This document shows positions 1,833 through 5,147 of a DNA stretch of 5,842 bases, piece by piece. The position numbers and the translations under genes are program-made. The stretch is from Escherichia coli (GTDB lineage Bacteria > Pseudomonadota > Gammaproteobacteria > Enterobacterales > Enterobacteriaceae), in the NCBI RefSeq assembly GCF_003334405.1, contig NZ_QOWM01000032.1, one strand, 5' to 3'. Each line of letters starts with the position of its first letter. Position 1 is the stretch's first letter. A model generated the notes under the pieces. That model was not told the DNA's origin. It made no database searches and saw only the letters and a list, made by a program, of their open reading frames with translations.

Positions 1833-2255
1833 ATGATGAAGAAATTAGTGGTTTTATTGATTTCCATTCTTGCTGGTTGTTCATCACCGCCAGAGCCAAC
1901 ACCCGTGCAGTTTGAAAAGGCAAATGAAGTGATCAATCCCTCATTGCCATATGTCCCCGATTTTCACGGTGTCATAAAGTCAGACGTTAGCGGTAAAGGA
2001 TGGGTTTATGAGATCACTTCCTTATCCGGAGTACAGGCCAGAACGCCGACGTTTTATTACGCTCTGGCTCATGCGGACAGGATTGTAGTGACAACACATG
2101 ATGCTGGGCTGTGGTTTCGAATCAGAGATCTGTTGAAGATGGAAGGGGCAACAGCAGTCGTGGAATGGCGAAACGAGAAAAGTTTTTTACCTGAACAGGG
2201 AAAAATAGTTTTCATTAAAGCACAAAACGAGGTGAAAAATGACTGGAAAAAATAG
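1833..2255 (+). CDS. Lipoprotein, function unknown (candidate entry-exclusion or T4SS-associated outer-membrane lipoprotein)
   Basis: 140-aa ORF. RBS AAGGAGA at 1824-1830, tandem ATG at 1833 and 1836. N-terminus MMKKLVVLLISILAGCSS has a basic n-region, hydrophobic core and lipobox L-A-G-C (type II signal peptide). Starts 9 nt after the T4CP stop. No family recognised by eye. Confidence 0.7.
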   Translation: MMKKLVVLLISILAGCSSPPEPTPVQFEKANEVINPSLPYVPDFHGVIKSDVSGKGWVYEITSLSGVQARTPTFYYALAHADRIVVTTHDAGLWFRIRDLLKMEGATAVVEWRNEKSFLPEQGKIVFIKAQNEVKNDWKK

Positions 2256-2544
2256 AGTGGTTTTACCTGCCTTGCTGGCGTTAGGATTAATATCAATAAA
2301 TGCTAATGCCGCTGATCCCTGTAAATCTGTTTTTTGTCTTTATGGTAAAGCTGTCGGTAGTAGTGGAGGGAGTGAGTGCAGTAGTGCCGAAAAGGATTTT
2401 TTTAAAAATGTTGAAAAGAAAAAGGGGAAAATCCGCTGGAGTAAAACATTTGATCTCCGTAAAGGTTTTTTAAATCAGTGCTCAACGGCAGACCCGGCGG
2501 CAATCTCTCTGATCATGAGTAAGTTTGGTAAGATTAAGGGGTAG
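2239..2544 (+). CDS. Small secreted (periplasmic) Cys-containing basic protein, function unknown
   Basis: 101-aa ORF. RBS GAGGTG at 2229-2234. Start ATG at 2239 overlaps the upstream ORF by 17 nt (upstream stop TAG at 2253-2255). Sec signal peptide MTGKNRVVLPALLALGLISINANA with A-x-A cleavage motif before ADPC. Mature part has 4 Cys and a Lys-rich C-terminus. Confidence 0.65.
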   Translation: MTGKNRVVLPALLALGLISINANAADPCKSVFCLYGKAVGSSGGSECSSAEKDFFKNVEKKKGKIRWSKTFDLRKGFLNQCSTADPAAISLIMSKFGKIKG

Positions 2545-2549
2545 ATGAT

Positions 2550-2807
2550 ATGAAAAAAAAAGAAAAGTTTGATTTTCTGAATGCAATAAAAGCAGGGCAC
2601 TCTGGCGTAATAACTGGTAATCCTGCTCATGCATTGGATGATAAGACTATGAACGCCATCATTCATAACTACGTGGCAACGATTGTGCCCGGTAAAGCAG
2701 GTAACTGCAAAGAAACTCCTCTCACAAAGTATTGTTCGAGGACTATGCCAGAGCGTATTTCAGTTGAAGAAATTAATGAGGTTAAAATTTATCCAGAATT
2801 CTTCTGA
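2550..2807 (+). CDS. Hypothetical small protein (85 aa), no signal peptide
   Basis: RBS AAGGGG at 2536-2541, about 8 nt before ATG 2550, which lies 5 nt after the previous stop. Begins MKKKEKF, encoded through an A9 homopolymer (2553-2561). Stop TGA at 2805-2807. No family recognised. Confidence 0.55.
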   Translation: MKKKEKFDFLNAIKAGHSGVITGNPAHALDDKTMNAIIHNYVATIVPGKAGNCKETPLTKYCSRTMPERISVEEINEVKIYPEFF

Positions 2808-2826
2808 ACAGAGATAAATGTAAACG

Positions 2827-2860
2827 CCGCAGATTCCAGATTTTAATCTGGAATTTGCGG
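2827..2860. promoter_or_regulatory. Inverted repeat / stem-loop in the 81-nt intergenic gap (candidate operator, RNA processing/stability element or weak terminator)
   Basis: CCGCAGATTCCAGAT-TTTA-ATCTGGAATTTGCGG. As RNA this is a 15-bp stem (14 Watson-Crick plus one G-U) with a 4-nt loop. As DNA it is a perfect 10-bp palindrome ATTCCAGATT-tt-AATCTGGAAT. Not followed by a U-tract on the + strand (GGTTGAACAACC). Sits in the only substantial gap of the gene array (2808-2888). Confidence 0.5.
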
Positions 2861-2888
2861 GGTTGAACAACCGAAGGGCGTTAGTTTT

Positions 2889-3323: not shown

Positions 3324-3835
3324 GGATTTTTTTAAGCGTAATTTTATTCCTGTTTACTGCTTTTCAGTCTGCAAATGCAGGTGGAATACCTGGTGCTTTA
3401 GCAGGAATACTTTCTACATTAAACCAGGAAATCCAGGGGAAAGTTATTCGTGTTCTCGATGGCGATACCATCGAAGTTTTACAGGACAAAAAGCCCGTCA
3501 GGATTCGCCTGGCAAACATCGATGCACCGGAGAAAAAACAGGCTTTCGGGCGCTGGTCAGCAAATCAGCTTAAAGCTCTGCTTGCAGCACAGCCTGTTAC
3601 GGTGACGTACACGCAGACAGACCGCTACGGACGCATTATCGGTCATGTGTTCACGACGAACGGCACGGATGCCAGCCGCTTTATGGTTCAGTCTGGCGCT
3701 GCATGGGTATATGAACGTTACAACGTGGATGAGTCATTACCGGCTCTACAACGGGAAGCGCAGGAACAAAAACGCGGTTTGTGGGTCGATGCAAATCCGG
3801 TTCCACCGTGGGAGTGGCGATACAAACATAACTAA
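3320..3835 (+). CDS. nuc: Secreted/periplasmic thermonuclease, staphylococcal nuclease (SNase) family, plasmid Nuc-like
   Basis: 171-aa ORF. Signal peptide MRIFLSVILFLFTAFQSANA with A-N-A cleavage motif. SNase-like core: VIRVLDGDTIEV, RLANIDAPE (compare SNase R-L-x-x-V/I-D-x-P-E), DRYGR, and C-terminal GLW. ATGA overlap with the upstream membrane-protein gene. TAA stop at 3833-3835. Confidence 0.88.
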   Translation: MRIFLSVILFLFTAFQSANAGGIPGALAGILSTLNQEIQGKVIRVLDGDTIEVLQDKKPVRIRLANIDAPEKKQAFGRWSANQLKALLAAQPVTVTYTQTDRYGRIIGHVFTTNGTDASRFMVQSGAAWVYERYNVDESLPALQREAQEQKRGLWVDANPVPPWEWRYKHN

Positions 3836-3850
3836 CTGATAGAGGTTTTT

Positions 3851-4255
3851 ATGGCTTTATCACCCAAAGAAAAGAAAGAGTTACAACAACGCTTCGAAAA
3901 GCAATTACTACCTGACCTTGATATGTCATTTGAACTAAATGGCGAAGTATATAAATTTAATTTTGATAAAAATGAGTCAGGTGACTATATCGATAGTTTT
4001 ACACAAGCAGTATGGGGAGGTTATCAGGATGCCGAGGAATGGGAAAAATATGGTAAACATCAGGAGACAGAATTACCTGAATACCCTGAACCAGTCGAGG
4101 GTTGGTGCGACTGTGATAAATGTAAGTCGATGATTTTTCATAAAGAGAAAAATATTTATGTTTGCCTCTCCTGCCATAAACAAACAGAGCCATTTCTTCC
4201 AATTGACTGGAACTCAAACGATTACGATTGGCTACCTTATGAAGATGAATACTAA
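3851..4255 (+). CDS. Acidic zinc-ribbon protein, function unknown (candidate anti-restriction / DNA-mimic-type factor)
   Basis: 134-aa ORF. RBS AGAGG at 3841-3845, 5 nt before ATG 3851. Strongly acidic (D+E well in excess of K+R by eye). CxCx2C ... Cx2C cluster (CDCDKC ... CLSC) typical of a zinc ribbon. Acidic/aromatic C-terminal tail DWNSNDYDWLPYEDEY. Low GC. Confidence 0.6.
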   Translation: MALSPKEKKELQQRFEKQLLPDLDMSFELNGEVYKFNFDKNESGDYIDSFTQAVWGGYQDAEEWEKYGKHQETELPEYPEPVEGWCDCDKCKSMIFHKEKNIYVCLSCHKQTEPFLPIDWNSNDYDWLPYEDEY

Positions 4256-4315
4256 TGCTGAATACTTCACAGTCATAATGGATGAAATGGCGACATAAGC
4301 ATTAAGGAGGCAAAA

Positions 4316-4528
4316 ATGAATGATTGGCTCTGTTCTTTACATGATTTAATCACAAATCCTGTATTTATGCTGTCTTTTTCAGTTTTTTGGGTGTCTACGG
4401 GAACACTTTTAATCAGAACTGTATTCAGAAAAATTAACATATCTGAAATTTGCATACTTTTTTTATTATTGACACTAATAATTCTGTCTTTATGTATTTT
4501 TGTAACATTAAAAGCTTCTTTTAACTAA
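4316..4528 (+). CDS. Small hydrophobic double-TM membrane protein (70 aa), function unknown
   Basis: Strongest RBS in the window, AAGGAGG at 4304-4310, 5 nt before ATG 4316. Two hydrophobic helices (VFMLSFSVFWVSTGTLLI; ICILFLLLTLIILSLCIFV). Same strand and spacing as neighbours. TAA stop at 4526-4528. Confidence 0.5.
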   Translation: MNDWLCSLHDLITNPVFMLSFSVFWVSTGTLLIRTVFRKINISEICILFLLLTLIILSLCIFVTLKASFN

Positions 4529-4571
4529 AAGCAGCCACTAAAGACAAATCAGATACTTTTTGAGGGTTATT

Positions 4572-5147
4572 ATGCAATATGCATTGTTTGATGGATTTGA
4601 ACGAAAGTTTTTGCTGGATGCTCTTGAATTTGGTGTTCTGAAGGACTGGAAAGAAAATCCGGTAAAAGAACTTCCTGATATTGATGAATCTGTTCACCCC
4701 TTCCATGTCTGCTATGGTGGATATTTATTAAATCCTGGTGTTTCAGATTCAGATATTAGCAGAAAAATAAAAGACCAGACAGGATTCTGGCTGGCAGCTA
4801 TTGATGATACCCGCATGGATTGTCATTCAATAGCTTATTATGATATTCACACACTCCCTCTGATTTCGTGTGGACATCAAAAGATAGTTCCTTTTGCAGC
4901 GTTAATAAAAGCTGATGAATGCATCATTTCTAAAATTTCTGCGTATTCTGGTTTTGCCGTAACAGCCTTTTTGAGAATTAAAGACCAGGATATTGCAATT
5001 AATATACTTAACCGTGAAGGAATTTTTGCCTTTAATGGCTGTGAACGCAGGTTCAGACAACCTGTAGGTGAAGATAACTGGAAACAGGCAGTGTCAGAAG
5101 AACGTGCTATTCGCTGTGCAAACAGACTAATTCAGTGTAAAGGATAA
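4572..5147 (+). CDS. Hypothetical protein (~191 aa) translationally coupled to topB; Cys/His-rich, no family recognised
   Basis: The ORF track opens at 4560, but that codon is TTG. The first ATG is at 4572 (MQYALFDGF...) with GAGGG at 4563-4567 as RBS, so 4572 is the preferred start. Stop TAA at 5145-5147, only 4 nt before the topB ATG, and the topB RBS (AAGGA, 5140-5144) lies inside this ORF's 3' end. Contains several Cys/His (HVCYGG, DCHS, SCGH, NGCERR), suggesting possible metal binding. Confidence 0.6.
   Translation: MQYALFDGFERKFLLDALEFGVLKDWKENPVKELPDIDESVHPFHVCYGGYLLNPGVSDSDISRKIKDQTGFWLAAIDDTRMDCHSIAYYDIHTLPLISCGHQKIVPFAALIKADECIISKISAYSGFAVTAFLRIKDQDIAINILNREGIFAFNGCERRFRQPVGEDNWKQAVSEERAIRCANRLIQCKG

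Follow-up and report, generated by a model that had tools for sequence, protein, structure and literature searches.

The plasmid DNA analysed here is a 5842-base stretch of an Escherichia coli contig (hereafter the window), in which eight small open reading frames (ORF1 to ORF8) lie on the + strand between two recognisable backbone genes. On the left, taxB (7..1824, + strand) encodes a VirD4-type coupling protein of a type IV secretion system (T4SS); according to the RefSeq annotation of an identical record, its true start is 39 nucleotides (nt) upstream of the window. On the right, the window holds the 5' part of topB (5152..5842, + strand), which encodes a type IA DNA topoisomerase III, as judged from its translation and annotation. 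The whole window is 100% identical to plasmid unnamed5 of E. coli FDAARGOS_1288 (NZ_CP070012.1), a 32.6-kb plasmid typed as IncX4, MOBP and MPF_T, in which virB11 and taxB are followed by the seven small genes that are annotated, and these by topB, hha and hns. The evidence supports the view that the taxB-topB interval is a known and already sequenced IncX4 backbone region, acting as a cargo hotspot with some uncharacterised genes, and it is probably made up of three parts, each with a history of its own, rather than forming one system.

Layout of the taxB-topB interval

The initial annotation described eight co-directional small genes at this place, and all eight ORFs were indeed found on the + strand at the coordinates it gave, between the end of taxB at 1824 and the start of topB at 5152. 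RefSeq annotation by the Prokaryotic Genome Annotation Pipeline (PGAP) includes seven of them, leaving out ORF7, and a Shine-Dalgarno (SD)-like sequence precedes each of the eight. The spacing was given almost correctly: ORF1 and ORF2 overlap by 17 nt and ORF4 and ORF5 by 4 nt, with gaps of 5 nt (ORF2/ORF3), 15 nt (ORF5/ORF6) and 4 nt (ORF8/topB), although the gap between taxB and ORF1 is 8 nt and not 9. The tight coupling read from these distances holds inside sub-blocks of the array, but larger gaps of 81 nt (ORF3/ORF4), 60 nt (ORF6/ORF7) and 31-43 nt (ORF7/ORF8) had been left out. The predicted features were also recovered, namely the lipobox of ORF1, the signal peptide and four cysteines of ORF2, the two transmembrane (TM) segments of both ORF4 and ORF7, the signal peptide of ORF5 and the acidic zinc-ribbon character of ORF6. 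The label 'orphan', by contrast, does not suit ORF1, ORF2 and ORF5, and suits ORF4 and ORF8 only in part, as wider families exist for them. Thus, the setting of small, mostly envelope-directed genes between a type IV coupling protein (T4CP) and topoisomerase III was described well, but two of these genes are members of T4SS-accessory families already described, and relatives of a third are found in F-type tra operons.

Comparison with diverged copies gave ratios of non-synonymous to synonymous substitution rates (dN/dS) of 0.11-0.28 for ORF2, ORF5 and ORF8 and of 0.48-0.73 for ORF3 and ORF7; the values of the first three genes are a clear sign of purifying selection. The GC content is 48% in ORF5 and 43% in ORF1, and 27-40% in the remaining genes of the array (35% in ORF4 and 27% in ORF7). 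No intrinsic terminator was predicted on the + strand inside the array, an Rfam scan of the window revealed no credible RNA family, and a repeat scan found no flanking direct repeats of the kind that mark a transposon-like insertion.

Mosaic structure among related plasmids

In the PLSDB database, 1452 plasmids match some part of the window, while at least 80% of it is covered in only 112 of them, and only 5 are at least 99% identical to it over the best matching stretch. IncX plasmids, such as R6K, pOLA52, the IncX3 NDM plasmids and the IncX4 plasmid pHNSHP23, have a common order virB11-T4CP-Cag12-TrbM-...-topB-(hha)-hns (PMC11880322, PMC8725589), in which Cag12 and TrbM correspond to ORF1 and ORF2. 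Comparative synteny, proposed by the initial annotation as a means of distinguishing a conserved block from a variable one, revealed that the taxB-topB interval is a variable slot. The window plasmid has a rare fill of this slot. In the epidemic 33-kb mcr-1 IncX4 plasmids (L005), Cag12 and TrbM are followed only by non-coding DNA of about 310 nt, an ORF8 homologue and topB, and ORF3-7 are absent. In other loci the slot is occupied by a 102-amino-acid (aa) membrane protein replacing ORF4 (L002), a 119-aa protein and DUF6012 (L003), PcfJ (L006, an IncI2 plasmid), an AAA ATPase (L007, L029 and L033), DUF6012 directly 5' of topB (L022) or other small genes (L027 and L028).

The genes of the interval also differ in how far they have diverged. 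Between this IncX4 plasmid and an IncX1/X3-typed plasmid, the amino acid identity is 40% for TaxB (99% in other IncX4 plasmids) and 34% for Cag12 (ORF1), and then 81% for TrbM (ORF2), 85% for ORF3, 93% for ORF8 and 100% for the N-terminus of TopB. Cag12, therefore, diverges in step with taxB, whereas from TrbM through topB the identity remains at 80-100%, and the jump from 34% to 81% places a recombination boundary approximately at the Cag12/TrbM junction (window position ~2239). This pattern implies that the segment from trbM to hns is a shared module, which would be horizontally exchangeable. The N-terminal 230 aa of TopB are 100% identical in L002, L003, L005 and L007, which include IncX4 plasmids and the IncX1/X3-typed plasmid, and 91% identical in IncI2. 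In three further loci (L036, on contig ERR12257642_66, L034 and L035), genes of H-NS, PcfJ, Hha, a staphylococcal nuclease (SNase), an ORF8 homologue, DUF6012, PilI and TopB occur in other orders.

Predicted products of the array

ORF1 (1833..2255, + strand) encodes a 140-aa lipoprotein, probably of the outer-membrane type, with a LAGC lipobox (Cys16) and a CSSPPEP motif that is invariant in its homologues. PGAP assigns it to the 'Cag12 family'. A six-sequence profile gave weak matches, over residues 1-38, to the VirB7 homologues TraN of pKM101 (3zbi_C, E=0.013) and TrwH of R388 (7o3j_C, E=0.41), in which a lipobox followed by a proline-rich segment aligns with ORF1, and ORF1 has an extra C-terminal domain that is only weakly similar to Cag12 in Pfam, the family of CagT/Cag12 of Helicobacter pylori. 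The top PDB matches of the ORF1 profile, designed TIM barrels, were set aside as low-complexity artefacts, and PDB sequence searches with ORF1 and with the TrbM profile returned nothing meaningful. The related IncX4 plasmid L016 has a separate 49-aa gene between the genes in the VirB6 and VirB8 positions; this gene is read here as VirB7-sized, so that ORF1 would be an additional, paralogue-like protein. Matches to ORF1 were found by tblastn in 2257 PLSDB plasmids, and in the loci inspected it follows T4CP or VirB11. The Cag12-TrbM pair as a whole lies 3' of T4CP or VirB11 in every related plasmid examined (IncX1/X3, X3, X6, IncU-typed and IncFIB/MOBC).

ORF2 (2239..2544, + strand) encodes a 101-aa secreted protein that PGAP names TrbM/KikA/MpfK. 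Residues 28-86 match the Pfam family TrbM (PF07424; independent E-value, i-E=6.3e-5), and the NCBIfam TrbM model gave E=0.009, far under its cut-off. The hydrophobic N-terminus, a putative Sec signal, ends with ANA/AD, and four cysteines (C28, C33, C47 and C81) do not vary among six homologues, which come from IncX4, IncX1/X3 and IncX3 plasmids, the untyped plasmid L022 and pWA8. An N-terminal Sec signal and four conserved disulfide-forming cysteines are the hallmark of TrbM/KikA/Pep proteins (PMC13311141), and together with a dN/dS of 0.12-0.26 these features mark ORF2, as far as its sequence tells, as a member of this family and a putative T4SS accessory, adhesin-like factor. Like TrbM (RP4/R751), KikA (R388), Pep (pKM101) and TivB12 (R6K), it is a small, helical secreted protein with a Sec signal and four cysteines, whose gene accompanies a P-type T4SS and appears not to be essential for transfer. 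TrbM of RP4 is longer (199 aa against 101 aa in ORF2), and ORF2 has no C-terminal extension, as is the case for TivB12, a short homologue from R6K (IncX2) named in PMC13311141. The same paper reports that conjugation and T4SS-dependent killing are stimulated by TrbM of RP4 and by Pep of pKM101.

The IncX4 plasmid pHNSHP23 allows trbM to be placed in a transfer operon. Its trbM was shown by RT-PCR and RNA-seq to be co-transcribed with taxB/pilX and induced by PixR, trbM and taxB being members of the PixR-activated pilX operon (PMC8725589), and the qtrbM-F primer of that study maps to 2375-2397 of the window with 3 mismatches. According to transposon sequencing (Tn-seq), the transfer of pHNSHP23 needs the pilX genes, taxA/B/C, tsxA, cds4, cds9, cds10 (pixR) and cds16, and the genes of Cag12, trbM and the ORF8 homologue were not listed among those essential for transfer (PMC8725589). 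The gene cds4 was considered as a candidate array gene and rejected, as its deletion primers map beside the gene of a MipZ/ParA partition ATPase, outside the window; thus, none of the interval genes retained by pHNSHP23 was listed as essential. We infer that ORF1 and ORF2 are non-essential envelope helpers of mating-pair formation or adhesion.

ORF3 (2550..2807, + strand; 85 aa) resembles VirB11 at its N-terminus. Its residues 1-28 (KFDFLNAIKAGHSGVITGNPAHA, window 2550-2633) match NCBIfam TIGR02788 VirB11 with E=5.6e-5 at model positions 227-252, i.e. in the His-box segment of VirB11, and a weak blastp match to the plasmid's own VirB11 was also obtained. The length of ORF3 is approximately that of the VirB11 stretch from the His-box motif to the C-terminus. 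A full-length VirB11 P-loop ATPase domain was not found in ORF3, and its alignment to the plasmid's own VirB11 is not co-linear. The gene is present in 296 PLSDB plasmids, is missing from L005 and, by the dN/dS given above, is under weak constraint. All this suggests that ORF3 may be a decayed 3' fragment of virB11 left by recombination, a gene relic and at most a fragment of VirB11.

The gap between ORF3 and ORF4 contains a 20-bp inverted repeat (2823..2864, + strand), predicted to fold into an RNA hairpin of -32.2 kcal/mol (z=-5.3). It is kept 3' of ORF3 in L002, L003, L004 and L007, with a compensatory change from CCAGATT/AATCTGG to CCGGATT/AATCCGG. The hairpin has no T-run and so does not qualify as a canonical terminator; it is a candidate for a terminator or processing site, and may mark where the pilX transcript ends or where two modules meet. 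Immediately 5' of ORF4 is a 23-nt intergenic motif (2862..2884, + strand; GTTGAACAACCGAAGGGCGTTAG), which occurs in a single copy in the window and is not expected by chance. In the form GTTGAACAACCG(A/C)AGGGCGTTAG it is also present between the Cag12 and TrbM genes of L022 (2768-2790; untyped replicon) and L029 (5434-5456; IncX3). The motif overlaps a weak promoter-like match at 2864-2893 and could be a promoter/ribosome-binding-site cassette or a recombination junction. A diverged copy was seen on the opposite strand directly 3' of the nuclease gene in L029.

ORF4 (2889..3323, + strand) encodes a 144-aa protein with two TM windows (14-46 and 112-134), predicted to be of the inner-membrane type. 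A search of 5.8 billion proteins yielded only close relatives, and the gene is present in 171 PLSDB plasmids; tblastn, in addition, revealed homologues of 34-39% identity in MPF_F plasmids, which are encoded between traF and trbB/traH and agree with ORF4 in topology and motifs. Because these relatives sit in F-type tra operons, ORF4 is probably another envelope or conjugation accessory. It resembles the small inner-membrane Tra proteins of the F plasmid, for example TraP, in being a small two-TM protein, and residues 26-113 match TraP (PF07296) co-linearly but weakly and not significantly (E=0.01 in NCBIfam and 0.048 in Pfam). The F-type homologues of ORF4 gave no match to TraP at E<=0.1, and the position of traP in the F operon differs from that of these homologues.

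ORF5 (3320..3835, + strand) is predicted to encode a 171-aa Sec-secreted enzyme of the SNase fold (thermonuclease). It matched the NCBIfam models EcnA (2.4e-13) and NucI (5.4e-12), both under the equivalog cut-offs, so that the assignment is at the family level only, as well as a PHROG endonuclease (9.5e-18), and one of its homologues carries PF00565. The sequence contains DGDT, IDAPE and DRYGR, which we take to be the calcium-binding and catalytic residues D21, D40, E43 and R87 of SNase. With a signal-peptide-like N-terminus (MRIFLSVILFLFTAFQSANA), the enzyme would degrade DNA in the periplasm or outside the cell. Its dN/dS is 0.18-0.28, and it has homologues in IncX1/X3 and IncI2 plasmids as well as in many plasmids of IncF size. 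Between plasmids, the signal-peptide region of the nuclease is wholly different while the mature part is 76-95% identical, which implies breakpoints inside the 5' end of the gene. PADLOC, run on all eight proteins, found no match to a defence system, except for that of the generic SNase domain of ORF5 to the candidate 'SNc+LTD' model.

Small exported nucleases encoded beside conjugative transfer genes are known from other plasmids, such as ParB of RK2/RP4 and Nuc of pKM101/R46, and to our knowledge no role in transfer has been found for them. ORF5 shares the SNase fold with ParB but lies outside any multimer-resolution operon such as parCBA of RK2, whereas Nuc has a phospholipase D (PLD) fold unlike that of ORF5. 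From both of them ORF5 differs in its translational coupling to a small membrane protein.

ORF6 (3851..4255, + strand) encodes a 134-aa acidic protein (pI 4.4) with a C-terminal zinc ribbon (CxCxxC...CxxC), to which Pfam gave only marginal zinc-ribbon matches. The family is narrow (23 clusters) and is present in 313 PLSDB plasmids. Homologues of 43-58% identity have topB, ssb and hha in their vicinity and no annotated nuclease. The AlphaFold2 (AF2) model, built on a shallow alignment, was unusable (mean predicted local distance difference test score, pLDDT, of 40), and the PDB sequence search gave nothing meaningful. The public name 'exodeoxyribonuclease V subunit beta' had no support in profile searches and is treated as a propagated misannotation.

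ORF7 (4316..4528, + strand), a 70-aa ORF with two TM segments in a 27%-GC stretch, has no RefSeq annotation. It is nevertheless probably a real small membrane protein gene, because its frame remains open in the diverged copy of L003 (46% aa and 67% nt identity) in spite of the low GC content, and because it is preceded by a strong SD, AAGGAGG. It was detected in 138 PLSDB plasmids, although only 7 of the matches cover most of ORF7, with partial N-terminal copies in IncI2-size plasmids, and no family matched it in NCBIfam, PHROGs or PADLOC.

ORF8 (4572..5147, + strand; alternative start at 4560) encodes a 191-aa soluble protein and ends 4 nt 5' of topB. The ATG at 4572 is the start chosen by PGAP and is supported by the invariant N-terminus MQYAL of the family. 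No match was found in Pfam, NCBIfam, PHROGs or PADLOC, and the PDB sequence search gave nothing meaningful. The AF2 model, built on a 17-sequence alignment, is confident (pLDDT 88.8; predicted TM-score, pTM, of 0.87), and its fold retrieved only generic alpha/beta matches from PDB and nothing from BFVD. In AFDB50, the same search found proteins that are 175-215 aa long and likewise uncharacterised, encoded by Burkholderia, Vibrio, Bacillus, Clostridium, Enterococcus and Lactococcus (E 1e-17 to 1e-6), and a profile search of 1.84 billion representatives revealed 262 clusters. ORF8 thus belongs to a widespread, uncharacterised and modestly interesting family on mobile elements, with a predicted fold that has no solved relative.

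The gene is present in 1203 PLSDB plasmids with a dN/dS of 0.11-0.23. Its identity is 92-96% in IncX4, IncX1/X3 and IncI2 plasmids and 71% in IncX6, and in all of them it lies 3-4 nt 5' of topB. A homologue of 56% identity is still in the T4CP-topB interval, two genes from topB, whereas relatives of at most 49% identity are not beside a topoisomerase and tend to occur in co-directional runs of small genes of no assigned function on plasmids and integrative and conjugative elements (ICEs). In one ICE-like locus the topoisomerase gene is ~5 kb away on the other strand. That ORF8 is an obligate partner of TopB as a general rule was therefore rejected: relatives of 32-49% identity have no adjacent topoisomerase, and the adjacency is limited to IncX and IncI2, down to 71% identity. 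Kinship with DUF6012 (hhalign probability of 0.1% against two DUF6012 proteins) and with the 194-aa gene 5' of topB in pVKH10 was likewise rejected, and the public name 'DNA topoisomerase III', also unsupported by profile searches, is treated as another propagated misannotation. The best guess is that ORF8 may be co-expressed with TopB and serve as an accessory in DNA transactions or in establishment.

Several further features of the plasmid deserve mention. An IS1 (L001, 553-1250) is inserted outside the window between EexN/pixR-like genes and virB2, and the VirB1-like transglycosylase gene of other IncX4 plasmids (L016) has no annotation in this one; here, the promoter region of pilX may be interrupted. 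Two antisense ORFs on the minus strand, 54-383 (109 aa) and 1570-1923 (117 aa), are located within or overlap taxB; nothing supports them, and they have most likely arisen by chance.

Origin and possible roles of the three parts

In the composite that we consider probable, ORF1 and ORF2 would form the tail of the T4SS (pilX) operon, contributing a VirB7-like/Cag12-like lipoprotein and a disulfide-stabilised secreted TrbM-type protein. ORF3-7 would be a variable cargo slot, of which the secreted nuclease is the most recurrent element, with ORF4 translationally coupled to ORF5, the predicted Sec-exported SNase-fold nuclease. As the most successful IncX4 plasmids do without ORF3-7, this part appears dispensable for replication and transfer. 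ORF8 would go with the topB-hha-hns module, exchanged almost unchanged among IncX1, X4, X6 and IncI2. The presence of the genes, their family assignments, their mosaic distribution, the purifying selection and the co-transcription of trbM with the T4SS operon are documented by this analysis or by published work; the biochemical roles are all inferred.

A number of observations weigh against this division. The Cag12 match of ORF1 in Pfam (PF13117) is partial and sub-threshold (i-E=0.0019; residues 73-113 on model positions 52-96 of 96), and the PDB profile search with ORF1 did not retrieve CagT of H. pylori. The Pfam TrbM alignment of ORF2 spans only model positions 10-59 of 156, and RP4 trbM was not complemented by TivB12 of R6K (PMC13311141). 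The Tn-seq of pHNSHP23 was based on matings of laboratory E. coli on agar, so that roles in other recipients or under other conditions may have escaped it. Genes of SNase, PcfJ, DUF6012, ORF6, ORF8, Hha, H-NS, TopB and SSB recur together in differently arranged plasmids, and such a recurrent neighbourhood could reflect functional cooperation that a purely mosaic-cargo reading underrates; the set suggests a loosely linked accessory neighbourhood, not fixed operons. Finally, the overlap of a small membrane protein with the nuclease start in each of the variants seen may represent a genuine two-gene module.

The best surviving of the alternative explanations is that ORF6 and/or ORF8, possibly with the variable genes on the topB side, are anti-defence or establishment factors that protect or process incoming plasmid DNA, the T4CP-topB slot being an anti-defence island. 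Several features of the genes are consistent with this. Distant relatives of ORF8 are found in long co-directional arrays of small genes of no assigned function, beside genes of ParB_N, DUF3085, UvrD, RuvB-like and ImpB proteins; ORF6 combines an acidic character with a zinc ribbon and has relatives that adjoin ssb and topB; neither protein matches a housekeeping family; and the gene directly 5' of topB swaps among unrelated families (ORF8, DUF6012, AAA ATPase and others), a turnover typical of conflict genes. However, the searches found no likeness to a known anti-defence protein or fold, ORF8 is highly conserved (by its dN/dS) rather than diversifying, and the mcr-1 IncX4 plasmids spread well without ORF6. 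The position of the interval is also unfavourable. Anti-defence genes concentrate in the leading region, while in RP4 the relaxase operon, on the relaxase-proximal tra side, enters the recipient last; by analogy, the taxB-topB interval is probably not in the leading region. On balance, this explanation seems doubtful. The same low likelihood is given to its extended form, in which ORF8 is the founding member of an unnamed family widespread on plasmids and ICEs (Enterobacterales, Vibrio, Burkholderia, Bacillus, Clostridium and Enterococcus) and acts in establishment or anti-defence, either on its own or in partnership with the plasmid's topoisomerase III; in MPF_T plasmids, the T4CP-topB slot would then be an unrecognised hotspot for such genes (ORF6, DUF6012, PcfJ and AAA ATPase).

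Somewhat less probable still is a self-contained nuclease module of ORF4 and ORF5, possibly with ORF6, in which a membrane partner would anchor, export or restrain the periplasmic nuclease and ORF6 would be its acidic cytoplasmic inhibitor, acting against incoming foreign DNA or for the turnover of extracellular DNA. The gene arrangement gives some ground for it: the gene of a small protein runs 4 nt into the start of the nuclease gene in the window (144 aa, 2889-3323) and in the three further variants checked at the ORF level, L002 (102 aa, 3207-3515), L007 (71 aa, 4869-5084) and L022 (108 aa, 3215-3541), and L029 has a similarly placed 108-aa gene. Moreover, ORF6 or a partial homologue lies 3' of the nuclease in the window, L002, L004 and L022, and protein inhibitors of nucleases are often acidic, as ORF6 is. 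Yet the upstream partners are not mutually homologous; those of the window, L002 and L007 are hydrophobic but unrelated in sequence, that of L022 being known by size and position, and hydrophobic ORFs arise readily in AT-rich DNA. Relatives of ORF4 are found in F-type tra operons without a nuclease and those of ORF6 without an annotated nuclease nearby, and a Sec-exported nuclease has no obvious need of a cytoplasmic inhibitor.

That the eight genes are one undescribed operon-encoded system of exclusion, establishment or anti-defence working as a unit, as the initial annotation had proposed, is very unlikely: they are co-directional with short gaps and no predicted + strand terminator, four of their products are envelope-directed, and the divergent MPF_T/MOBP plasmid L022 has a similar eight-gene interval, but the members differ in phylogenetic distribution and recombination history (ORF1 diverging with taxB, and TrbM to topB being shared), the epidemic IncX4 plasmids lack five of the eight, the composition is mosaic, two or three belong to known T4SS-accessory families, and a strong conserved hairpin divides the array at 2823-2864. 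Entry or surface exclusion, in particular, could not be upheld as a function of the array. ORF1 has no match to the EexN family in NCBIfam, and a separate EexN-family lipoprotein gene adjoins taxC/pixR elsewhere on the same plasmid, in agreement with the entry-exclusion gene placed upstream of pilX1 in pHNSHP23 (PMC8725589).

As it stands, the composite interval is mostly an ordinary and already sequenced backbone region. IncX4 plasmids are among the main carriers of mcr-1 colistin resistance, and it is hence useful to sort out which of their backbone genes matter. Three classes of genes can be separated in this interval: conserved T4SS accessories (Cag12-like and TrbM-like), dispensable cargo (ORF3-7) and a conserved topB-linked gene (ORF8), which represents a broad family with no characterised member. 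Should ORF8 or ORF6 turn out to act in establishment or anti-defence, it would be worth mining the T4CP-topB slot for such genes.

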